Source: a phage
Direction: 5' to 3' (one strand)
Length of the DNA stretch: 64,000 nt
Assembly: GCA_018015315.1 (NCBI GenBank)
Contig: GCA_018015315.1_3629.1
Shown here: piece by piece, positions 23,478 to 35,274 of the stretch
Layout of the letters: every line of letters begins with the position of its first letter
Position numbering within the stretch: the stretch's first letter is position 1
Made by a program: the position numbers and the translations under genes
The notes under the pieces: generated by a model
Seen by the model: the letters and a program-made list of their open reading frames with translations, nothing else
Database searches by the model: none
Told to the model about the DNA's origin: nothing

Positions 23478-24844
23478 ACGTCCCCCTCTTCTGCTCTGGT
23501 TTCAAAATCTTTCCTGACAATTTTGTCTAAGTCAGGGAATGTTGTATTGTAAAACTCTACGACTCGCGGGTCAACAATAATATCAACTTCTCTTAGTGGA
23601 CGCAACAAGTTTATCCCTTGTATTGTCTTAACTCGACTCAAAGCAACATACGTCATCCCAGGAGAGAAAGCTCCGTTCTTTCCAAGGTCTAGGTTGTAAC
23701 AATCTAGCGTAAGTCCTTGACTTTTATGAGATGTTACGGCGTACCCAGATTTTAGAGGAAGTTGCTTGTATGACCCAATCACCACCCTCTCTATAAACTT
23801 CTCCATCTTCCTTTCTGCAATGTTGTATCTTTGAGATGGCTTATACTCGTTATTCTCCCACAACCTTTGCTCTATGTCAACCTGTGTTCCATCTTCAAGC
23901 TCCACCACCACCGCCTTGTTCTTAAATTTAACAATTGTGGCACGTGTTCCGTTAACATAATAAGGTACTTTGTGCGTCGGGTCAACATCGTTGGCGGTTA
24001 TCATAACCTTCATGCCAATTTTCAACTTCATCTCCTGCTCAACTGGCAGGGTGGAGGGAAACTTACCTTTCATTTCACCAGTGTATACCTTTTCTGGGGC
24101 GTTGATGGCATCATAGAACCTTCTGTTCACTTCCTCCGCTTGTTTGTTGGTGGCGCAAATTGTGAGAGCGTCTGTTGGTACACCGCCTTTGTAACAACGA
24201 GCATTAAGTTCTGCTACAACCTCTTTTATGCGACGACCCTCACGAACACAGTTGAGCATTGTGGCAAATCGAATAGACTCCTGTCGGAACTGATCTACTA
24301 GGGCTATGTTGTGGAGGTCAAGCTCTTTCCAAGATTCGGTATAGCAACACAGGTCCGTATGGTAGAAGTTGAAGTAGGCTTCCTTCTCCATAGAAGATAC
24401 AACAGGAGGTGCTTGGTAAAAATCGCCAAACAATATGACCTGTATGCCTCCGAAAGGTTTGTCATTTTTTCGAAGGAAGCGGAGTTTCCTATCCATCTCT
24501 ATAAACTTATCAGCACGGATCATAGAGATTTCATCGATAATTAGGATGGTAAATGCCTTGCTTTTCAAAGGCTTTGCTGTTTTTGCCCTTATTGCAGTCC
24601 AGTCCGACTCCATGCTCACACCTGCTGCAAGATCGAATGTTCGGTGTGCTGTTGCTCCATTAACGTTTAATGCGGCTACCCCTGTCGGGGCAACCGTTAT
24701 GCAAGAGTCTCCATACATGGACTGGATCATGTTGATGAGGTATGTCTTCCCACAACCTGCGGGTCCTGAAACGAAGACATTCTCACCGCTCATGATTGCA
24801 ATGAGGGCAGCATCTGTGCCTACGTCATACTGCCCTTTTTCCAT
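23474..24844 (-). CDS. PIF1/Dda-like superfamily 1 DNA helicase
   Basis: Walker A GPAGCGKT; ITVAPTGVAA; ILIIDEISM; GDFYQAPPV; C-terminal ALSRVKT. Confidence 0.85.
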   Translation of the reverse strand: MEKGQYDVGTDAALIAIMSGENVFVSGPAGCGKTYLINMIQSMYGDSCITVAPTGVAALNVNGATAHRTFDLAAGVSMESDWTAIRAKTAKPLKSKAFTILIIDEISMIRADKFIEMDRKLRFLRKNDKPFGGIQVILFGDFYQAPPVVSSMEKEAYFNFYHTDLCCYTESWKELDLHNIALVDQFRQESIRFATMLNCVREGRRIKEVVAELNARCYKGGVPTDALTICATNKQAEEVNRRFYDAINAPEKVYTGEMKGKFPSTLPVEQEMKLKIGMKVMITANDVDPTHKVPYYVNGTRATIVKFKNKAVVVELEDGTQVDIEQRLWENNEYKPSQRYNIAERKMEKFIERVVIGSYKQLPLKSGYAVTSHKSQGLTLDCYNLDLGKNGAFSPGMTYVALSRVKTIQGINLLRPLREVDIIVDPRVVEFYNTTFPDLDKIVRKDFETRAEEGDV

Positions 24845-26049
24845 TACGCCTCCTCGTAGATAATGTCGATGATGTTACCATCACGGTCAACTACGTATTC
24901 AATCGGATCGCCATCTTTGCGTGATTCCGGTGCTGCTACGATTTCGTAGCGGCATGCACGGCACTTAGCACTGTTGTGTTGGTATGGCACACTAACCACA
25001 TCCGCAGGGTCAACCATAACCATCATTACGGTGCCATAGCCAGCTGCATACTCTTTGCTGGCGCAGTGCAGGCCATAAGAACACGCAGCTTCCGGATCAT
25101 CTTCTACAAAGTTACGAGGCATGGATACAAAAGCACCCTGGTATTGTGGAACTTTACCGCTGTGCCAATCCACCCACTTGCCTCCGTTAAACTGAACCCC
25201 TTTATAGCAAATGATTCGACCATCTTCTGCAACCTGGATGTCATTAGCCTGCATGAAATCGTAGAGCATGTTCACAGATTTTGCAGACGGGTTGCGTAGC
25301 AGACGGACAAGGAATTTAACATATCGGTCGTCCAGTGTTCCATCTACATAATCTTCCTCAATTTTCTTTGCAATGGTAGATTGCATCTCTACACCGTAGT
25401 AATAGAGCTTACCATCTTTCATAATCAGGTTGTCTGCAAGTGTAGTGAACTCATTCTTGCGTTCCAACCAGACAAGGATTTCACCAATTGCCTCGTCATA
25501 TTTCTGAACAGAGATATGGTCGAAGACTTTCTGGTAAACTTCTTCACTTTCACTGCGGCGAATTTCAAAAATACCTTCGTTACAGGTGATCTGGAGGAGT
25601 TCCCCGCAAATAACTACCAAAGGCTCGATGCTTCGAGTCTGTTGCTGAGACACACTGCTCACCACCTCCAGCACCGGATCTTTGACTTCTACTAAAGGTT
25701 CTTCTGACTTGATTGCCACCCCAGTGAACCCCACACCGTGAACAACGCACAGTGGGTATACCACACTCCAACGTTTAACGGAACCTTCTCCTGAATCTAA
25801 GATCATGGCGTACTTACCGTTGTCTTCCAGTCCGTAGCGGAATAAACGGGCCTCTTCGCGGGTTTCAAAATCCTCACGGGTATAGCAGACACTATCTCGG
25901 TCAGGATCAAACAGCTCTGGGGCACCCACTGCCAGTGTCCATGTTGTAGTACCTTTCTCAATAGCACATGTGAAACCCTTCTTCTCAAGTTCTGCACGGC
26001 GGTCGCGTGCTTCTTTACGAGTTTTGAAATGTTCGTAGATGAAAATCAT
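24844..26049 (-). CDS. rIIB: rIIB-like protein
   Basis: C-terminal GLHCASKEY, VDPADVVSVP, AKCRACRYEIV match recalled T4 rIIB; start set to MIFIYEHF with SD AAGGAGA just after rIIA stop. Confidence 0.75.
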   Translation of the reverse strand: MIFIYEHFKTRKEARDRRAELEKKGFTCAIEKGTTTWTLAVGAPELFDPDRDSVCYTREDFETREEARLFRYGLEDNGKYAMILDSGEGSVKRWSVVYPLCVVHGVGFTGVAIKSEEPLVEVKDPVLEVVSSVSQQQTRSIEPLVVICGELLQITCNEGIFEIRRSESEEVYQKVFDHISVQKYDEAIGEILVWLERKNEFTTLADNLIMKDGKLYYYGVEMQSTIAKKIEEDYVDGTLDDRYVKFLVRLLRNPSAKSVNMLYDFMQANDIQVAEDGRIICYKGVQFNGGKWVDWHSGKVPQYQGAFVSMPRNFVEDDPEAACSYGLHCASKEYAAGYGTVMMVMVDPADVVSVPYQHNSAKCRACRYEIVAAPESRKDGDPIEYVVDRDGNIIDIIYEEA

Positions 26050-26059
26050 AGCTGTCTCC

Positions 26060-28042
26060 TTATTTGGTGTTATTCTTTGCATCGATCAGTTCACGGTATT
26101 CAATCATAGCAGGAGTGTCCCAGTATTTCAAGCCTACATGCTTCAAAAGTGGGTATTTCTTTTCCAATCTTGCAATATAGGCCTTCCCGCACTTGACTCG
26201 GTTGGCGATTAAGATTTTGGCACGATGATTTAGCTCACTGTGCTTCCACGTGGTGTTACCTTCCCACTTGTGGAAATGTGGCCGATAATTTCCAAAATCT
26301 TGCATGGGAATAATTTTCCCTAATTGTCTATACAGGCTGTCATAAGAAGTCTCATTTGCTGCACGGGTCAGTAAGAATTTCCAAGCATCCTCTTTCAACA
26401 GGTGCTCCACATTCTTCTCTGTAACATACTGGCAATCAGGATCAGTCCAAAGCAGACGAGATTCAGATACCAGGTACAGATCTTCACCTTCAGGAATCTG
26501 AAGTGCCGCACGCACACGGTCATAATCTTGCTGGTAGATGTTACTCATCTGCCCCAGCCAACAACTTCCACGTTGGATATCACCCTCATAAGGGATGCAG
26601 TGTTTAATCTTCCGGAACTCTGCCTTAGTAATACGCTCACGGCGGAAGTAACCATCCTTCTCAAGTTTTTTAACCCAATAGCCTGGCTCATAACGAGTTT
26701 TTGTTTCACATTTCTTGACAGGTCGGCGAGGGAGCTCTGATAACAATTTGACCGTATCTGCAAAGAACGGGTGGTGTGCCGCTTCTTTAAACTCTTCCAC
26801 CAGATCCGTGTTCCGGCAATAGAAAACGTTGCGTCCGGTGATCTCGCTTAAGTAGTTACACTTATTTCGGTTATATTTGCCGTCTCCGTCGTTAAATACA
26901 AGGTATACACCTCGTAAGAACTCCGACTTTCCGTAACGAGCATAGCCTATGCGGCCTTTATTTAAGCCGCCAGCGAAAATTTCACAATCACCTAAGTCGC
27001 CAAGCCCTGTTTCTTCCCAACGGTTCCACATAAAGTTTTTGCCGAAGATGTGTCCGAACACCCCACTATTCTTCATCATTTCACGTGCTTCTGCGGAGGT
27101 TTTTGCCGTCTCCAGTTCTGCAACAACTTCTGCCCCGCGAAGACGTATACCTTCTTTGACAAAGGCCTCCAGGCGATCCTGGAATCCACCGTCGTCATGG
27201 CCCTCTATGGTCCATTCACGCCCAGGGTTAATATTACAATCCCCAATAGGAATTTCCACGCAGATTGCAGGGTAATCGGTCAATGTCTCCAGGAACTTAG
27301 AGCGGTAAGGTTGGTGACCCATCACAACACGGCTCTCATCAGAACTGGTATAACCTTTCAGGATGGTCATTTTCCAGCCATCCTTCTCGTAATGATACTG
27401 TGCCTCAACCTTATCACCTTCTAACATCTTACTGGTCATGGGATCGGTGACGGTGAACGGAAACTTCGCATAGCGTAAGCACGATGCAATAGCAGTGCGA
27501 TATTTCAGGACATGCTCTTTCTTAACATGGAACTGAACTTTTACCCCGTTGTGCTCTTCAGTCTTCCGCTCGCGGATCTTGGTAACGTTTGGGATACCCT
27601 GATCCAAGAACAATAGATATGTGCTTTCAACACCATTATGCACACTGATCACATCGAAAGTGTCCACCATGCTGAACGGAGCCTTTGAACCAACACCTTT
27701 ATTACCTACCAGAGCGTTGCTGTTGCGCTTGGTTGACTCCCCGAGGTTCATGAAAGTGTTGCGGACCATCTCTTCTGACATGCCTAATCCGACGTCCTGC
27801 ACAAAGAAGTATGGTTCAAGGTCTGTAGGAGAGTGAATAATGATCGGTACATCACCCCGTCCAGACTCAACATGGGAGTCCACGGCGTTGAAGATTGGTT
27901 CACGGCAGCTTGCCAGCACCTTATCTTCGTAAATCCCTTTAATGATTAGCCCAAAAGTCTCTTTGTTCAGAGAAATTGAGCCCCTGGTGACCTCCATATT
28001 CCCGGTTAGTACCGCTTTAGTTTCATTACTGTTTACGATCAT
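26060..28042 (-). CDS. rIIA: rIIA-like protein (N-terminal GHKL-type ATPase fold)
   Basis: N-box REPIFNAVDSH, D/G-box VQDVGLGMS, G2 GNKGVGSKAPFS, aligning with recalled T4 rIIA N-terminus; ATGA overlap with upstream hydrolase gene. Confidence 0.8.
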   Translation of the reverse strand: MIVNSNETKAVLTGNMEVTRGSISLNKETFGLIIKGIYEDKVLASCREPIFNAVDSHVESGRGDVPIIIHSPTDLEPYFFVQDVGLGMSEEMVRNTFMNLGESTKRNSNALVGNKGVGSKAPFSMVDTFDVISVHNGVESTYLLFLDQGIPNVTKIRERKTEEHNGVKVQFHVKKEHVLKYRTAIASCLRYAKFPFTVTDPMTSKMLEGDKVEAQYHYEKDGWKMTILKGYTSSDESRVVMGHQPYRSKFLETLTDYPAICVEIPIGDCNINPGREWTIEGHDDGGFQDRLEAFVKEGIRLRGAEVVAELETAKTSAEAREMMKNSGVFGHIFGKNFMWNRWEETGLGDLGDCEIFAGGLNKGRIGYARYGKSEFLRGVYLVFNDGDGKYNRNKCNYLSEITGRNVFYCRNTDLVEEFKEAAHHPFFADTVKLLSELPRRPVKKCETKTRYEPGYWVKKLEKDGYFRRERITKAEFRKIKHCIPYEGDIQRGSCWLGQMSNIYQQDYDRVRAALQIPEGEDLYLVSESRLLWTDPDCQYVTEKNVEHLLKEDAWKFLLTRAANETSYDSLYRQLGKIIPMQDFGNYRPHFHKWEGNTTWKHSELNHRAKILIANRVKCGKAYIARLEKKYPLLKHVGLKYWDTPAMIEYRELIDAKNNTK

Positions 28043-28539
28043 TTATTGCGCTCCTTGTAGTAGATATGGCTCCCGAATTGAGCTGTCCTCTGCATCTTTT
28101 TTGCCCATTTCGGTCGTACTTTGGTTGTATGGTAGTGTGTTGCTCCACCTGTTATATCCATAGCCATGTATGCAACATGGTTGTTATTATAGACTTTTAG
28201 AAGCATCTTTGCAAGACTTTTAGCGTGATCCCATGAATCTTTTTCTGTCACCTTAAAAGTTTTGCCGTGGTTTGTCCACGAAAACTGGTTAGGTTGGTAG
28301 ACAATCTTTCTTATAGTGTCTGGGTATTTGGGGTGAGATTTCCTGTTTAGGGTGGCAAACCCAGATGCCAGCATACCCATCGTGCCATCCCCTCTAGCTT
28401 CCCTGTAGATATTGCATGCTAGAATGTTTTCCTTAGTATCTGATGGCTTGCAAGTATGGTATACTTTTTGTTTTGGTGCTGCAACAACAGGCAGCGATAA
28501 AAATGCGCTCAAAATAATAGCAAAGATCTTAATTTTCAC
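28039..28539 (-). CDS. secreted cell-wall hydrolase, SleB-like domain with signal peptide
   Basis: N-terminal MKIKIFAIILSAFLSLPVVAAP; motif NIYREARGDG typical of SleB/Hydrolase_2; GTG start with GGAG SD; co-directional with rIIA/rIIB. Confidence 0.7.
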   Translation of the reverse strand: MKIKIFAIILSAFLSLPVVAAPKQKVYHTCKPSDTKENILACNIYREARGDGTMGMLASGFATLNRKSHPKYPDTIRKIVYQPNQFSWTNHGKTFKVTEKDSWDHAKSLAKMLLKVYNNNHVAYMAMDITGGATHYHTTKVRPKWAKKMQRTAQFGSHIYYKERNK

Positions 28540-28977: not shown

Positions 28978-30162
28978 TTAAGCTTTAGCCAAAATGGCGC
29001 TAAACTCTTCACCAAACTCTTTTACAATCTTCATCAGGTTTGGGTATGCTTTGATCAGCTGAGCAACAATCTTGTCACGACCTTTACCGATAAGCAAGGC
29101 ATTTCCTAAGGCATTAGGTTTCATCATCGCCATAAAGACTGAGAATACAAAATCTCGGTTCTCGTCCTTGAAGTTTTCCCAAAGGAAATCGAGGAAGTTT
29201 GCCACGCAGCTGACAAGATCTTCGTCTGAGATACTTGCATTTTCCATCATATTACGAATAGCGATACAACCTTCAGATCCAAGAATCCACAAGATGTCTG
29301 GCTGTTTAGGACCTACGTATTCTTTGCAACCTCCTGCCATAATCCGACCGATTTCCGGTAAGTTGCGTTTCTTGGTGTGGTAAGTCCAGATCTCTACCGC
29401 TGCAGTGTGACCAATAGCGCCTTGCAGAAGAACACGGGCCATAGCGTCAGAAATAATACCACTGTCAAAATCGTGCAAAATATCAGATGCAGCAACCCAA
29501 GATCGCGGTGTGGCAAAAGATGGACAATTAATCTCAGCCATGGCCTCATAATTATCGATAGCTGATGGAACTCTTTTCAGATATCCAATTACAGAGGAGT
29601 GCACCCCATTAAGGAATGCGTAGTCCTCAATAAACACCTCTGCATTGCTTGTAACTTCTACAATGATAAAACGGTTAGCCAGAGGGGCTTCGAGCGCCGA
29701 AAGAACCGCACCATCTGTAGAACGGTTACCAGCAGCCACAAAAACAGAGCCTTTAGGGAATGCATAGGTGCCGCACTTGTGGTCGAGCATAATTTGCATT
29801 GCAACCTTTTGCAGGTAGTTATCTGCATGAGTGAGCTCATCAAGAAAGATAATTCCGCTCCAGTCAGGATCCGCAGGCCAAAATTCTGGAATTGCAAACA
29901 CTGTACGTGTAGTTCCATCCGCTTCTACAGGGATAGGTAGCCCAGATAAGTCGGCAGGATCTTTATCTGACAGCCGCACGTCAACCAGGTTGTCATCTCG
30001 CTCACCGAACATATTGTCGGCGATCTGCTTCATCACCTGGCTCTTTCCCACGCCCATTGGTCCTAAAATCAGGACAGATCGGTTATGACGCTGGGCAAAC
30101 TGAATGATAGCTGGCAACTCACGGACAGTGATTTGACCACTTTCAAATACGTTTCTTGACAT
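28978..30162 (-). CDS. MoxR/CbbQ-like AAA+ ATPase
   Basis: Walker A GPMGVGKS; Walker B IIFLDELTHAD; 394 aa. Confidence 0.75.
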   Translation of the reverse strand: MSRNVFESGQITVRELPAIIQFAQRHNRSVLILGPMGVGKSQVMKQIADNMFGERDDNLVDVRLSDKDPADLSGLPIPVEADGTTRTVFAIPEFWPADPDWSGIIFLDELTHADNYLQKVAMQIMLDHKCGTYAFPKGSVFVAAGNRSTDGAVLSALEAPLANRFIIVEVTSNAEVFIEDYAFLNGVHSSVIGYLKRVPSAIDNYEAMAEINCPSFATPRSWVAASDILHDFDSGIISDAMARVLLQGAIGHTAAVEIWTYHTKKRNLPEIGRIMAGGCKEYVGPKQPDILWILGSEGCIAIRNMMENASISDEDLVSCVANFLDFLWENFKDENRDFVFSVFMAMMKPNALGNALLIGKGRDKIVAQLIKAYPNLMKIVKEFGEEFSAILAKA

Positions 30163-30431
30163 TAGTAAAAGTCCTCTACTTGTGTGTAAGTGTTTTCAAA
30201 GTTTTCCAAAACAGATATCACATCGGATATGTCAATATCATACGTGACTCTCCAGTTGTACGCAACCCTTTCTGCTGTTGCCTCTTCTGGCGCTAGTCGT
30301 CTGCTGGCATAAAAGAGTGTTGGAGTACACTTTCTTGCTTGCCCTCTAACTTTCCCATAATAATATCTGTGGATATCTTTGTCAAAATTTAACTCTTTTT
30401 CTGCACGAAGTTCATATTGCTGGTATAACAT
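30162..30431 (-). CDS. hypothetical protein (89 aa)
   Basis: ORF track. Confidence 0.45.
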   Translation of the reverse strand: MLYQQYELRAEKELNFDKDIHRYYYGKVRGQARKCTPTLFYASRRLAPEEATAERVAYNWRVTYDIDISDVISVLENFENTYTQVEDFY

Positions 30432-30475
30432 CTCTACTACTCCTTAAGCAGCATCCTTGCCGCCATTCCTGCCCA

Positions 30476-30856
30476 CTAAAATGCAGTCCGAATCCAGACA
30501 AGGTTCTTATCTGCCCAATCATAGAGGCAAGTCATTGCACTATTGAATTGCTCACACGGAGGATAATCTTCTTCCATCTGGCGCATAGCAGAGCCTTGTG
30601 GGTAAAGCTCCCGTGCTGCAAACCACGCATCGTAGTCATCCACGGTATCGAAGTAGTATACAACATCCTCCAACTCAGGATCGAACTTTGAATTATCAGG
30701 ATCCAGTTGTTCAGGGAACTTGGAGCGTAACTTGCCAGCCACAATGCTTGCCAACTCGCTAACATGCTTATTGTCCCACTCCGCTAGTTTCCCGTCTTCA
30801 GTGATGCGTCCTAACCACTGATCATGCAGGTCAATTGTTGTCTTCCACCGGGCCAT
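30476..30856 (-). CDS. hypothetical protein (126 aa)
   Basis: ORF track. Confidence 0.5.
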   Translation of the reverse strand: MARWKTTIDLHDQWLGRITEDGKLAEWDNKHVSELASIVAGKLRSKFPEQLDPDNSKFDPELEDVVYYFDTVDDYDAWFAARELYPQGSAMRQMEEDYPPCEQFNSAMTCLYDWADKNLVWIRTAF

Positions 30857-30858
30857 TA

Positions 30859-31116
30859 TCAGTCCACCTCTTCTTCTCGTTGTAGTTCAAGATACCCGTA
30901 GGTCTGGACATCTTGAAGGGTGTGGAACTCTCCATCTGCCGCTAAGGCACGAACAACTTGGCACAAAACCTTATGAGGAACTTCATCCAGACCCAGATTC
31001 AGTGCAGGAAACACCTTATCTAAGTCAACAAAATAAACAAACTGTAGCTCACCAGCTTCAAAAGGTGTATCTTCAATAAACATCTTCTCGGCATTAGTCA
31101 AGATCTGCACTTTCAT
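30859..31116 (-). CDS. hypothetical protein (85 aa)
   Basis: ORF track. Confidence 0.45.
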   Translation of the reverse strand: MKVQILTNAEKMFIEDTPFEAGELQFVYFVDLDKVFPALNLGLDEVPHKVLCQVVRALAADGEFHTLQDVQTYGYLELQREEEVD

Positions 31117-31472
31117 TATTCTACCTCCTCTTCTTTTTCTTCGGCATTAGTTTCAGTGCTACCCCACTCTGGAGTTTCCACCTCGATAGTAAACTCACGT
31201 ACTACACGGTAATTGCCCATGAAGCGCTCCACTTCGTCAAGGCTTACGGAGAAGCCATTGGCAACCAGGTCTGCAGCACCCTCTTCTACCAGGTAGTCCA
31301 GATTGGCTTCCAAAGCTTCAGGCTCAAACCCTGTTAATGCAATCAGATAACCTTCCCCTTCATCAGGGAGGACAATACATCCCAACTGATTTTCTTTGAA
31401 AAGGCAGTGACCATCATTATTGATTGGGTGTTCATTGCAGTAAATAGCTGCACGATAAGTAACTTTAGACAT
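31116..31472 (-). CDS. hypothetical protein starting MSKVTYRA (about 118 aa)
   Basis: ORF 31116..31493 trimmed to ATG at 31472 with SD AAGGAG 8 nt upstream; start region lies in the 29-bp inverted repeat. Confidence 0.5.
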   Translation of the reverse strand: MSKVTYRAAIYCNEHPINNDGHCLFKENQLGCIVLPDEGEGYLIALTGFEPEALEANLDYLVEEGAADLVANGFSVSLDEVERFMGNYRVVREFTIEVETPEWGSTETNAEEKEEEVE

Positions 31473-31477
31473 CGGTA
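31449..31477. repeat. 29-bp perfect inverted repeat, left copy
   Basis: Reverse complement equals TACCGATGTCTAAAGTTACTTATCGTGCA; spans start codon and first 8 codons of gene 31116..31472. Confidence 0.85.
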
Positions 31478-31485
31478 AGGTCTCC

Positions 31486-31764
31486 TTAGGCAATTGTCAT
31501 TTTACATTCTTGAAATTTTAACACAAGACGGTGATTGTGTCTAGTGTCTAAAAAGATTTTTTCAACCATCAGGCACACGGTATAACCGTCCATCTTGTTG
31601 ACAACAAAATCTCCAGGATGAGGGAGGATGTCTCCCGGATTGGGGAAACATAGTCCACTCAGAAAGGCATCGTCAGTGGTGGACTTAATAGATTTCCACA
31701 CACTGTCTGCCTGAACATGTTCACCGACGTAATATACATTACCACATGCCTTCATCATAGTCAA
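31486..31764 (-). CDS. hypothetical protein (92 aa)
   Basis: ORF track. Confidence 0.45.
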   Translation of the reverse strand: MTMMKACGNVYYVGEHVQADSVWKSIKSTTDDAFLSGLCFPNPGDILPHPGDFVVNKMDGYTVCLMVEKIFLDTRHNHRLVLKFQECKMTIA

Positions 31765-32660
31765 ACCCTCGCATAAATTAAACTTGTATCAGTATACTTC
31801 TTTAATGGGTAAATATCCTGTCCATAGATGCAATCATTAAACACCTCATCTACCCAAAGGCTACACTTATATCCCATCATTTCTAAAACACCCATCTCTT
31901 CTTCGGTAAACTTATCACCGCTCTTGCAAGATGTCAATACCTCATTCTGAACTCTTGCTACCTCGAAGCGGTTATTGGAAATATCGCTATTGGCGATCAA
32001 ATACTCACCTAGAGGGTGTGCGGCATTAAAGATGCACAGTGGACGGCTGACGTAATAGTCTCCGGGTGTATAAAAATTGTTGAGGTCTTTCACTAGAACA
32101 TTCTTATCAGTCACTTCATTTATAACATCATGCATATCGCACATCTTTATATGTTTGAGGATTCCATCCCCCGTCACAAAATAAAAACTTGCTGAGACAC
32201 TTTCGGCATAGATCTTACTAGATCCGTTGTAGTTGTATTTTACTCGGATGCTAACGGGGGTTTTTCCTGTCGCGTTAGCCATCATCCAAAGAAATGGCAG
32301 CTCATACTTCTCCTCTGAGGAAACAAAAGGTGAGGTAGCCAGAGATCGAAAACCTCCAGAGAAGTTGAAAGTTACAGAACCGCTCCGGCGGTATGATACC
32401 GCGTATTCTACTTTTATATCGACGTACCCATTGGAATAGGTGTGTCCTTCATTATCTAAATATGTCCACTTATCAGACCCAGATACCAATCTACGCTCAA
32501 TAACCTTCATCACTACAGGAATTAGTGGGTTGGTACAAACCGCTTTTGAAGTAGCTTTATCATCTAAAGCCTCGTAAATTGCAGAAAGGATGTCCCCAGC
32601 TGAAAGATTGGTTGTTATGTCCTGTTTCCACCGCGTACTAAAACTGTTAAGATTTGCCAT
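31761..32660 (-). CDS. hypothetical protein (299 aa)
   Basis: ORF track; driven by minus promoter 32701-32729; SD AGGAG. Confidence 0.6.
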   Translation of the reverse strand: MANLNSFSTRWKQDITTNLSAGDILSAIYEALDDKATSKAVCTNPLIPVVMKVIERRLVSGSDKWTYLDNEGHTYSNGYVDIKVEYAVSYRRSGSVTFNFSGGFRSLATSPFVSSEEKYELPFLWMMANATGKTPVSIRVKYNYNGSSKIYAESVSASFYFVTGDGILKHIKMCDMHDVINEVTDKNVLVKDLNNFYTPGDYYVSRPLCIFNAAHPLGEYLIANSDISNNRFEVARVQNEVLTSCKSGDKFTEEEMGVLEMMGYKCSLWVDEVFNDCIYGQDIYPLKKYTDTSLIYARV

Positions 32661-32700
32661 GAGGGAGTGCTCCTATGTTAGTTTTATTTCTAATGGGTGC

Positions 32701-32729
32701 ACTATATCGGAGATTTAGAGTAAAGTCAA
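32701..32729 (-). promoter_or_regulatory. sigma70-type promoter, leftward arm of divergent pair
   Basis: -35 TTGACT, 17-nt spacer, -10 TATAGT; reads into gene 31761..32660. Confidence 0.5.
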
Positions 32730-32742
32730 CACGTTTTTGATG

Positions 32743-32771
32743 TTGACATCTATTGAAACAATTGATACGAT
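32743..32771 (+). promoter_or_regulatory. sigma70-type promoter, rightward arm of divergent pair
   Basis: -35 TTGACA, 17-nt spacer, -10 TACGAT; reads into HNH-like gene. Confidence 0.5.
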
Positions 32772-32802
32772 TTCTTCACTTACAGAGCACGAGAGACAAC
32801 TC

Positions 32803-33780
32803 ATGAATCTTGAAAAATATTATACACCAGAAGAGTTAGAGCGCCTGCTCAAAAAATATAGACGCAAACAGAATAATGCACGGAAACGAGATATAGAGTT
32901 CGACCTGTCATGGGAAGAATACCTCCTATTTGGTAAAAAACTTTTAGGAGATGGAGTATGCGACTATACCCTTATACCTTTTGACATGCACACAGATGAA
33001 AACGGGCTGGGAAATCCTTTCTACCCATCTCTGGAGCGGATAGATGATGAAGGTCCTTATGCGGTTGATAACTGTTGTGTAGTGGGATTGAGATGCAACT
33101 CTCTAAAGGACTGTCTGGTAGATAAAAAGACTGCAGTCTTGATTAAAGACGAAACTGATCGAAAAATTGTCCAGCAGATGATGCTCCACCTGAGCGAAGA
33201 GCGTATGGAGAAATTGAAAGGTGATTATACTTTTGAAGATTTCATCTTGCAATATGGAACGGAAGAGGATAAACTAGCACTCTTTGACGAAGAAGAGGAG
33301 GAAGATATGCTACCGATGTCTAAAGTTACTTATCGTGCACCCAAGAAGCACATTTCCGACATTGTAAACGAGCCTATCACAGAAGAGATTGAAGAAATGA
33401 CGCAACAGGTGCATGAAGAGGAAAAAGAGACTCAGGAGGTCGAAGAGGAGCTTACAGAAGAGGTTCCTGCACTACCTGATGATGTTGAGATTGCCAAAGC
33501 TTACACTTTCTATTGTCAAACGTTCTACGATGTAGGTATGAAAGTTGATCTGTCGTTCAGCCAATTTAAGAGTTCGTATATTCGCAAATGCTGTGCTTTA
33601 ACTGGTGAACGTCTTGGAGCTGGACTTAAACCCCTGTTGGTGACCGACTGGAATAAAGGTTTCACTAAAGGAAACTTTATGGTAGTATCTCCAATTATGG
33701 AGAAAGCTATGACAGATCTTATGAAGACCACCCGCATGACAATGACCGAGTTGGCAGGTATTTTCAAACACGTTAAATAA
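32803..33780 (+). CDS. HNH-endonuclease-like protein with two tandem degenerate HNH-type domains
   Basis: SLERIDDEGPYAVDNCCVVGLRCNSLK and weaker repeat VTDWNKGFTKGNFMVVSPIMEK; acidic linker carries internal SD+ATG (MSKVTYRA) inside the 29-bp inverted repeat; start set to MNLEKYY because track start overlaps promoter. Confidence 0.55.
   Translation: MNLEKYYTPEELERLLKKYRRKQNNARKRDIEFDLSWEEYLLFGKKLLGDGVCDYTLIPFDMHTDENGLGNPFYPSLERIDDEGPYAVDNCCVVGLRCNSLKDCLVDKKTAVLIKDETDRKIVQQMMLHLSEERMEKLKGDYTFEDFILQYGTEEDKLALFDEEEEEDMLPMSKVTYRAPKKHISDIVNEPITEEIEEMTQQVHEEEKETQEVEEELTEEVPALPDDVEIAKAYTFYCQTFYDVGMKVDLSFSQFKSSYIRKCCALTGERLGAGLKPLLVTDWNKGFTKGNFMVVSPIMEKAMTDLMKTTRMTMTELAGIFKHVK
33311..33339. repeat. 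29-bp perfect inverted repeat, right copy
   Basis: TACCGATGTCTAAAGTTACTTATCGTGCA inside HNH-like ORF, encoding LPMSKVTYRA after SD-like GAGGAGGAAGA. Confidence 0.85.
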
Positions 33781-33813
33781 TGACAGGGGCCAATGGCCCC
33801 TTCTGGAGTTTTA

Positions 33814-35274
33814 ATGGATATCAGAAGTTCAGAAATCATTGCCTCACAAAAAGATGATGCCCTGAGAATGTTGCAGGCTGCACGTATGTATCTCCTTGAA
33901 AAGCTGCCGTTTTATGGCACACTGCTGTCAGGATTGCAGTTCGTAGAAAACCATACATGGTGCTCCACCATGGCAACCGACCATAAACGCATCTATTACA
34001 GTCCTGAGTTCATTATGGGGTTGGCTGATGAACGTAAGGCTATTCTTAAGGCTTCTCTAACTGACGAGCAGTTTGAGATGGCTGAGGTTTTCTATTCCCC
34101 CAAATCTGTGAAAGAGGTGGCCTTTCTTCTGTCGCATGAGGTGGGGCATATTATCTGTGATCACCTGGTCCGTGGTAAAAGCTTTGAGCCGGAACTGTTC
34201 AATATTGCTTGTGATCACGTTATCAACACAGGACTTGTGGTTGACTTTAGCAAGCCTCCTTGTGTTTTCTTCCCGAAGGGGAAAAGCACTACGTTCGTGA
34301 AAGGTAAGCCTTTTGGCTTCTTAGCCAGCTGCTACTGCGATATGAAGTTTCATGGATGGATTGCTGAGAACGTTTATGCAGTTCTTGATAAGCAAAGAGA
34401 TCAGAATAACGGTAAAAGTAAGAACGGTAAAGGTGAGAACTCTCAAGGTGATAAGCGACAAACAGATGATCACATGAGTGGGAACGGTGGCACCAGTGAT
34501 GATCTTGGAAAAGCTATAGGGTATGATCAGCCACAACCTGTAATCAGCCAATCTGATAAAGATCAGGCCATGCAGGACTCTGGTGATATGCTGGAGGCAG
34601 CAATGCAAGCGTCCGGAGGCCGTTGCCCCGAGGCGGTGCGTGAGTTTGTCAAGAACAGAGGTAAGCCTGTAATCAACTATATAGACATCATTAAGCAACG
34701 CATGTTGTCTAAACGAAAGGCTGAACTGACCTACAGAAAACCTGGTCGCCGATCTGGGTCTTTGACCAGCACAATGCGAAAAGTTGGGGCTATAAACAAG
34801 AACCAGCACGTTATTGTTCCTGGTCGTAATCCGGAAAACACTATAGATATTGTGGTGGCTTTAGACGTTTCTGGCTCGATCTCTCAAAGAACTTTAAAGA
34901 AAATGTTCAATGAAATCACCGGATTGTGCAATCTGTATAAAGAGTTTAAGGTTACAATGTTCTGTTGGTCAACTGAGGTTGGAGAGGTTAAAGTATACAC
35001 TCGCGGCAACATAGACGAGATGATTAACTATGAGGTCCACTCAACATGGGGCACAACAGCTGCTTGCGTGTTCGAGTATCTGGATGCCAACATACCGAAT
35101 GCAAAAGATGTCATCGTCCTGACCGACCTATACTTTGAGCATAACTTTGAACAAAAGGTTGTTGACAACAAGTGGAAAAAGTACGATACTTTATGGGTTC
35201 TAACCGAAGGGTATAATAAAAATTATATCCCGAGCTTTGGGAAAACTGTGGAATTAATCGAGTACGCTAAGTAA
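33814..35274 (+). CDS. metallopeptidase-like + von Willebrand factor A domain protein
   Basis: HExxH motif LSHEVGHIICDH; MIDAS motif VVALDVSGSIS; start MDIRSSEII with GGAG SD. Confidence 0.75.
   Translation: MDIRSSEIIASQKDDALRMLQAARMYLLEKLPFYGTLLSGLQFVENHTWCSTMATDHKRIYYSPEFIMGLADERKAILKASLTDEQFEMAEVFYSPKSVKEVAFLLSHEVGHIICDHLVRGKSFEPELFNIACDHVINTGLVVDFSKPPCVFFPKGKSTTFVKGKPFGFLASCYCDMKFHGWIAENVYAVLDKQRDQNNGKSKNGKGENSQGDKRQTDDHMSGNGGTSDDLGKAIGYDQPQPVISQSDKDQAMQDSGDMLEAAMQASGGRCPEAVREFVKNRGKPVINYIDIIKQRMLSKRKAELTYRKPGRRSGSLTSTMRKVGAINKNQHVIVPGRNPENTIDIVVALDVSGSISQRTLKKMFNEITGLCNLYKEFKVTMFCWSTEVGEVKVYTRGNIDEMINYEVHSTWGTTAACVFEYLDANIPNAKDVIVLTDLYFEHNFEQKVVDNKWKKYDTLWVLTEGYNKNYIPSFGKTVELIEYAK

Follow-up and report, generated by a model that had tools for sequence, protein, structure and literature searches.

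Two genes on opposite strands of a 64,000-nucleotide (nt) stretch of phage DNA (contig GCA_018015315.1_3629.1 of assembly GCA_018015315.1; this whole stretch is called the window below) encode a MoxR-class AAA+ ATPase of 394 amino acids (aa), the orthologue of gp24 of phage N4 (28978..30162, minus strand), and a DUF2201 protein of 486 aa, the orthologue of N4 gp25 (33814..35274, plus strand). We consider it likely that these genes form an ancient ATPase/DUF2201 module that was split by an inversion and yet remains functional, probably as an ATP-dependent protease or remodeller acting in early or middle infection. The window belongs to an rV5-like Vequintavirus: its 6.3-kb region containing both genes matched 122 phage records at 90–99% DNA identity, nearly all of them Escherichia rV5-like phages of the genus Vequintavirus. 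A preliminary description, made from the sequence alone, had placed a MoxR-like ATPase at 28978–30162 (−) and a partner combining an HExxH-like motif with a VWA MIDAS motif at 33814–35274 (+), ~3.6 kb apart. Both open reading frames (ORFs) were confirmed at these coordinates, and both identities were borne out by the analyses given below; the two genes are also co-conserved.

The couple is of the MoxR/VWA kind and of the DUF2201 (N4 gp24/gp25) subtype, which is already catalogued and annotated; the records of phages LL12 and Murica name the two proteins “MoxR ATPase” and “metallopeptidase (contains von Willebrand factor domain)”. To relate the window to other genomes, 80 viral contigs and 80 bacterial loci with DUF2201 relatives were searched with profiles of both families, and counts were restricted to the loci with enough upstream DNA (78 viral and ~77 bacterial). 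Of the 78 viral loci, 76 have an ATPase homologue directly upstream of the DUF2201 gene and in the same orientation, at a median distance of 217 nt; the two exceptions are both rV5/Seunavirus-like. The same arrangement was found in 72 of the 77 bacterial loci (median gap 4 nt), with 5 more in which the ORF calls overlap, and bacterial chromosomes carry the pair as a free-standing operon. Sulfurivermis fontis, metagenomic phages, an N4-like roseophage, jumbo phages and N4 itself (gp24/gp25) also have the two genes side by side. Beside the pair, viral loci carry genes of nucleotide metabolism and replication (thymidylate synthase, DHFR, dUTPase, dCTP deaminase, 5′-3′ exonuclease). The DUF2201 family comprises at least 14,288 clusters at 50% identity (E ≤ 1e-30), and the matches of the two proteins in the phage database run parallel in count (670 and 821 records) and in host distribution. 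This strongly supports the view that the ATPase and the DUF2201 protein are partners of a widespread phage and bacterial gene pair. The linkage expected of a MoxR/VWA couple, which holds in 76/78 viral and ~77/77 bacterial loci, is broken in the window, where the genes are separated by 3,651 nt (3.65 kb) and lie on opposite strands instead of being adjacent and co-directional.

The closest described counterpart is N4 gp24 (AAA ATPase)/gp25 (vWFA) of the Schitoviridae, which has the same families (profile E values 2e-58 and 1e-81) and domain content and, like the window, carries the genes in an early/middle region near rIIA/rIIB. The N4 genes differ in being adjacent and co-directional, 167 nt apart, where those of the window are divergent, and the protein identity is ~20–27%. 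No function is known for N4 gp24 and gp25, which give middle transcripts and count among the 14 genes of the N4-like core (PMC4193335; PMC2784036).

A family of ~100-aa ORFs was detected by profile between the ATPase and DUF2201 genes in 15 of the 78 viral loci, all environmental and always on the same strand (among them loci L013, L015, L018, L023, L028, L029, L037, L047, L051, L060, L062, L063, L067 and L087). These proteins share an N-terminal “K(L/M)D(x)R(H/Y)” and several conserved Trp residues, and might act in those viruses as a third component; the window yielded no homologue.

The history of the split can be read from the Vequintavirinae, where both arrangements occur. Certrevirus phiTE, Septuagintavirus A73 and a metagenomic relative (L173) keep the genes adjacent, in a rightward unit that runs phosphohydrolase, small genes, ATPase, DUF2201. 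The split arrangement is found in Seunavirus GAP31, two related IMG/VR viral contigs (L011 and L012), L172 (a Vequintavirus-like contig at 62% identity) and the window itself, and in these genomes the ATPase gene is on the opposite strand and ends a leftward unit. In GAP31 this leftward unit starts with a phosphohydrolase gene whose product is 52% identical to that of phiTE. The block from phosphohydrolase to ATPase has kept its order relative to transcription while its orientation with respect to DUF2201 has flipped, and we therefore conclude that the block was inverted. The inversion would be the derived state, because every outgroup has the adjacent arrangement, and it would be old and stable, because the split is common to genomes of only 43–62% protein identity.

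The event would date back to the ancestor shared by the Vequintavirus, Seunavirus and Av-05-like phages, turning round the block from the first rightward gene (the phosphohydrolase) to the ATPase. The ATPase would then have come to close the leftward unit, and the DUF2201 gene to stand second in the rightward one. As both units would start at one back-to-back promoter-like region, co-expression could have been kept. In the window this region is a divergent intergenic stretch of 142 nt (32661..32802), in which two matches to the sigma-70 consensus (32729..32701 on the minus strand and 32743..32771 on the plus strand, each 10/12) share the palindrome GTCAACACGTTTTTGATGTTGAC (32725–32747). The palindrome supplies the −35-like hexamers of both sites and could be an operator for a dimeric regulator.

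By its motifs and its fold, the window ATPase belongs to the MoxR class. It has an intact Walker A (GPMGVGKS, 30040..30063, minus strand) and Walker B (FLDE, 29836..29847, minus strand), and G37, G39, K40 and S41 of the former and D108 and E109 of the latter are invariant in an alignment of 18 homologues. The AGNR, LANR and PR positions, interpreted as sensor 1, arginine finger and sensor 2, are invariant in the same alignment. The protein matched phrog_1297 (“ATPase”) at 1e-110 and has more than 5,600 database relatives, of which those at ~35% identity (E 1e-45) carry AAA_3 (PF07726), AAA_5 (PF07728) and bpMoxR (PF20030). The best PDB match of the family profile was one AAA module of Midasin (1e-11), and the AlphaFold model (pLDDT 84) had as its best fold matches NorQ, solved with its VWA partner NorD, and CbbQ2 (E 2e-8 to 5e-8). 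No NCBIfam family matched the ATPase or the DUF2201 protein, and the PADLOC defence models gave only P-loop-level matches for the former (E ≥ 5e-4) and none for the latter.

The DUF2201 protein consists of an N-terminal HExxH zincin-like domain, a disordered linker and a C-terminal VWA/MIDAS domain. It matched the Pfam families DUF2201_N (5e-28) and DUF2201 (6e-11), both over the curated cut-offs (98.9 bits for DUF2201_N, PF13203, against a cut-off of 23.2). The N-terminal motif HEVGHIICDH (HExxHxxxxH; 34135..34164, plus strand) was compared in 23 phage and bacterial homologues, and its H115, E116, H119 and H124 are invariant, as is the Arg that follows; the motif holds HExxH plus a putative third metal ligand. 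In the C-terminal domain, the MIDAS motif DVSGS (34864..34878, plus strand) is equally conserved, with DxSGS and the downstream GT and TD (D358-V-S360-G-S362, G420-T421 and T444-D445, numbered from the ATG at 33793) invariant in the 23 sequences. A VWA fold was also recovered by the fold searches with the full-length model, whose VWA matches include the NorD VWA domain and the Rea1 MIDAS domain. The real start of the gene is 33814, as in the preliminary description, because a GGAG Shine-Dalgarno sequence precedes it while the upstream ATG at 33793 lies within a GC-rich hairpin.

This hairpin, AGGGGCCAATGGCCCCT (33785..33801, plus strand; z = −2.6 against shuffled sequences), stands between the 325-aa gene that precedes DUF2201 and the DUF2201 start, directly 5′ of the Shine-Dalgarno sequence; the record of phage Murica lists it as a terminator. 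It could serve in read-through attenuation or in transcript stabilisation.

The family of the DUF2201 protein also bears a misleading name. The PHROG family phrog_1314, which corresponds to the DUF2201 metallopeptidase/VWA family, is labelled “HNH endonuclease”, and this label is carried by N4 gp25, by GAP31_033, by the RefSeq records of Murica and FFH2 and by pharokka-style annotations. The Pfam domains and the motifs show no HNH, and the label looks like a propagating mis-annotation.

How the pair might work can be drawn from the characterised MoxR/VWA couples. In NorQ–NorD, a finger of the VWA domain reaches into the NorQ hexamer's pore and ATP hydrolysis remodels the linker of the adaptor, and activation needs both the carboxylates on the surface of the client enzyme and a NorD VWA domain that is intact (PMC13036017, PMC9976466). 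By analogy with this and other such couples, the phage ATPase would form a hexamer on which the VWA domain would dock, while the MIDAS site would hold an acidic residue of a specific target. ATP hydrolysis would then remodel the adaptor or the target, and the fused HExxH domain would either cut the target or be itself switched on by the remodelling. Together these steps would make the pair a two-component, substrate-specific ATP-dependent protease or remodeller working in early or middle infection and not in virion assembly. FtsH offers a functional analogy only: like the activity proposed here, it joins an AAA+ motor to an HExxH metalloprotease acting on selected proteins, but it is a single membrane-anchored polypeptide of another AAA+ clade with a peptidase of family M41 and no VWA domain, and homology is limited to the AAA+ fold. 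A more specific version is tentative: the DUF2201 pair might be an uncharacterised kind of two-component ATP-dependent protease, its MoxR hexamer driving a VWA/MIDAS adaptor with a zincin active site of its own. Unrelated lytic phages (N4-like, rV5-like and several jumbo phages) would cleave a specific host protein with it early in infection, for takeover or counter-defence, and the rV5 couple would do so without operon linkage.

Several points weigh against the reading of the locus as a split but working protease or remodeller. The interaction and co-expression of the two proteins and their ATPase and peptidase activities are predictions. Compared with the PDB, the HExxH domain gave only weak matches, confined to the surroundings of HExxH (MJ1213 minigluzincin, 0.008; the M48-type peptidases BepA and HtpX, 0.14–0.6), nothing significant came from PDB sequence and profile searches with this N-terminal domain, and neither fold search of the full-length partner model, both of which were dominated by the VWA domain, returned a peptidase. 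The window ATPase itself stays under the Pfam gathering cut-offs for every AAA family (16.7 bits against 22 for AAA_5), with no match to AAA_3 in the Pfam search. The locus samples behind the adjacency counts are biased by the search patterns, and on the bacterial side they represent a single gammaproteobacterial clade. The direction assigned to the inversion comes from outgroup parsimony rather than from a rooted tree. Lastly, promoter-like matches number 21 across the region, against 17.1 ± 4.7 expected in shuffled sequence, which is not above chance; of the divergent promoters that had been described, the two back-to-back 10/12 matches exist, and promoter function is plausible as a prediction.

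The main mechanistic rival is that the pair is a cofactor-insertion or activase chaperone of the NorQ–NorD, CbbQ–CbbO, CobS–CobT or CoxD–CoxE type, which matures or reactivates a metalloenzyme, perhaps one of nucleotide metabolism, instead of cutting a protein, the HExxH site binding or delivering metal or being vestigial. We regard this as unlikely, though it has points in its favor. Structurally the ATPase comes closest to NorQ and CbbQ2, the VWA matches of the partner include NorD, and the viral copies stand among enzyme genes such as those for thymidylate synthase, DHFR, dUTPase and dCTP deaminase. Among the MoxR/VWA couples that have been characterised, most serve in metal insertion or as activases (PMC13036017, PMC7159879). 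Against it, the HExxHxxxxH motif with its catalytic Glu, a hydrolytic zincin signature, is invariant in phage and bacterial members. To our knowledge, none of the partners NorD, CbbO and ViaA has an HExxH peptidase-like domain. Nor do the bacterial loci hold a conserved client-enzyme gene: their conserved neighbours (a thioredoxin, a ~370-aa protein, an Hsp15-like and a NUDIX protein) occur in at most 35 of the 80 loci and point to no client.

The individual systems resemble the phage pair in part. NorQ–NorD, which inserts FeB into nitric oxide reductase, is likewise a two-gene couple of ATPase and MIDAS-bearing adaptor, and the ATPase model matches NorQ in Foldseek at E 2e-8 with a TM score of 0.62–0.67 on the target. 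However, NorQ has ~260 aa, the phage ATPase is extended at its C-terminus by a helical region of ~120 aa, the sequence identity is 16–21%, and no client like nitric oxide reductase accompanies the phage pair. The Rubisco activase CbbQ–CbbO and RavA–ViaA also combine a hexameric MoxR motor with a VWA adaptor that engages the client through its MIDAS, CbbQ2 being the second-best fold match, but their clients (Rubisco; fumarate reductase, Nuo and LdcI) are absent from phage biology. Midasin/Rea1, the best PDB profile match of the ATPase, shares an AAA_5-type module and a MIDAS domain with the phage couple, but is a giant eukaryotic polypeptide with six AAA modules that removes ribosome-assembly factors and has no peptidase.

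Another reading accepts the inversion and holds that, after it, the two genes became functionally independent in the rV5-like phages, with separate roles and no longer as a couple. The genes do belong to different transcription units 3.65 kb apart, and separate expression would be possible: of the sigma-70-like matches in the region, the best (TTGACA-17-TATTAT, 11/12; 30385..30357, minus strand) falls within the 89-aa gene, a short way upstream of the ATPase start, and may be an internal promoter for the ATPase. Both genes were nevertheless retained in every split-lineage genome examined, with the Walker, HExxH and MIDAS residues intact. The dN/dS ratios were taken from the close relative SophiaRose, the dS against the 62%-identical contig being saturated. 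Compared with SophiaRose, the ATPase gene has 31 nucleotide differences and 1 amino-acid difference (dN/dS 0.009) and the DUF2201 gene has 32 and 7, respectively (dN/dS 0.07), which indicates strong purifying selection on both genes in the split lineage. Moreover, both are at most 2.5 kb from the same divergent promoter-like region, and co-regulation may have survived the inversion. With the parallel match counts and host distributions of the two proteins, these observations make independence quite improbable.

A chaperone of virion assembly, like the MoxR ATPase p618 and the VWA protein p892 of Acidianus two-tailed virus, is more doubtful still. That virus gives a precedent for a virus-encoded MoxR/VWA couple, which takes part in tail development (cited in PMC7159879), and some N4-like roseophages encode virion proteins near their gp24/gp25 homologues (PMC4193335). 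An assembly role is argued against by the neighbouring nucleotide-metabolism, replication and rII genes and by the free-standing bacterial operons. The phage genes lie in early/middle regions beside rIIA/rIIB and not in structural modules, and N4 gp24/gp25, as middle transcripts, are not among the listed virion proteins (PMC4193335). The Acidianus couple, set beside the phage pair by description, also differs in belonging to an archaeal virus and in serving extracellular tail development. For p618/p892 we know of no reported HExxH domain.

The idea with which the preliminary description accounted for the split, namely that the genes were once adjacent and that a mobile element, be it an HNH homing gene, an element with the 29-nt inverted repeats at its ends, or both, was inserted and drove them 3.6 kb apart, is largely refuted, and we give it very little credence. 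It has some support: phiTE carries a genuine HNH_3 endonuclease right between its ATPase and DUF2201 genes, a perfect 29-nt inverted repeat is present in the window, and the gene directly upstream of DUF2201 matches “HNH endonuclease” and endonuclease VII PHROGs. An insertion, however, cannot put genes on opposite strands. Part of the intervening DNA is moreover the upstream flank of the ATPase in unsplit genomes, as seen from the phosphohydrolase block in GAP31 and from a 126-aa gene (30476–30856) beside the ATPase that has a homologue at the equivalent position in GAP31. A split common to genomes at 43–62% protein identity is, again, old and stable. A comparison of synteny with related phages does show the unsplit state in phiTE, A73 and the metagenomic relative, but it traces the split to the inversion and not to the insertion of an HNH region.

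The contents of the gap agree with this. It holds six leftward genes (89, 126, 85, 118, 92 and 299 aa; 30162..32660, minus strand), which lie between the divergent region and the ATPase and form the upstream part of the inverted block, then the divergent intergenic region and the 325-aa gene (32803..33780, plus strand). The six leftward genes fall in PHROG families of unknown function, and a Pfam search matched none of them. Pfam and PHROG searches found no transposase or integrase gene anywhere between the two genes, and no other recombinase gene and no detectable HNH domain between the repeat arms.

The 29-nt inverted repeat (31449–31477 and 33311–33339) is perfect, so this part of the preliminary description stands, but it does not bound a mobile element. 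Arm 1 (31449..31477, minus strand) covers 5 nt and the first 8 codons (MSKVTYRA) of the 118-aa gene and is conserved in ~116 related genomes. Arm 2 (33311..33339, plus strand) is the same 29 nt within the variable acidic linker of the 325-aa gene and is found in only ~28 of the 116 genomes, a Murica-type subgroup, while the intervening genes are present in all of them. In phage SophiaRose, otherwise 97% identical, a different 42-nt stretch flanked by microhomology occupies the arm 2 site. These comparisons indicate that arm 2 is a short patch, a replacement of ~30 nt, copied from the start of the neighbouring gene, in what looks like a conversion flanked by microhomology. We also considered the repeat as the termini of an element or as the site of an invertible segment, and rejected both, since arm 2 is missing in most relatives and the genes between the arms are unchanged. 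Because the arms are inverted and the genes divergent, the two mRNAs carry an identical, not a complementary, sequence, which in one copy is a real translation start and in the other lies within the linker.

The 325-aa gene, which had been described as an HNH-like ORF between the two genes, is indeed there (347 aa if read from the TTG at 32737), but its HNH identity did not hold up. It matched phrog_3118, labelled HNH endonuclease, at 8e-113 and, more weakly, the Srd and endonuclease VII PHROGs, and it is from PHROG profile similarity alone that the label “HNH-like” comes; in GenBank records it goes by “anti-sigma factor” or “HNH endonuclease”. No Pfam match, to HNH or otherwise, was found even at E 5 and no match in the PDB, and no His is invariant among 8 homologues. 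The protein consists of two conserved modules and the variable acidic linker, is ~40% identical in Seunavirus-like loci and has a dN/dS of 0.21. It is a resident, stably inherited gene and probably not a nuclease.

The endonuclease of phiTE (locus L009, 9475–9987; HNH_3, Pfam 1e-24) is of the homing type and sits exactly between the ATPase and DUF2201 genes, and the junction can therefore accept mobile genes. The possibility that the 325-aa gene is a decayed copy of it was examined and rejected (hhalign probability 0.3%).

Around the pair, the window has the gene order rIIB (24844–26082), rIIA (26060–28042) and a SleB-like cell-wall hydrolase gene (28039–28539; Pfam 2e-19), all on the minus strand, with the hydrolase gene lying between rIIA and the ATPase block and a 126-aa gene, also on the minus strand, between it and the ATPase. 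Downstream of the DUF2201 gene there is a run of small rightward genes. In N4 (locus L174) and in the rV5-like phages alike, the ATPase and DUF2201 genes are within a few kb of rIIA/rIIB. Sixteen records of the series MG0656xx, named “Campylobacter phage” (host Campylobacter jejuni), are ~98% identical to E. coli rV5-like phages in this region, and their host label seems doubtful.

A search of the literature on DUF2201, COG3864 and rV5 MoxR returned no functional study, the mentions of DUF2201 being incidental, and in a CRISPRi-ART study only capsid and rII genes were targeted in EdH4 and N4. The window in itself holds an ordinary pair that is already annotated, and its specific point, an old inversion that uncoupled an operon, is a modest piece of comparative genomics. 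With 670 phage records and at least 14,000 clusters at 50% identity, the module is nonetheless one of the largest in lytic phages among those that look like enzymes and are uncharacterised. In rV5-like phages both genes have been kept under strong selection after their adjacency was lost, which confirms that each of them is needed. In E. coli, phages of the rV5/EdH4 type, or N4, would make a tractable system for perturbing one gene or the other without polar effects. The value of the locus would lie in what this very common phage module does, rather than in anything unusual about the locus itself.

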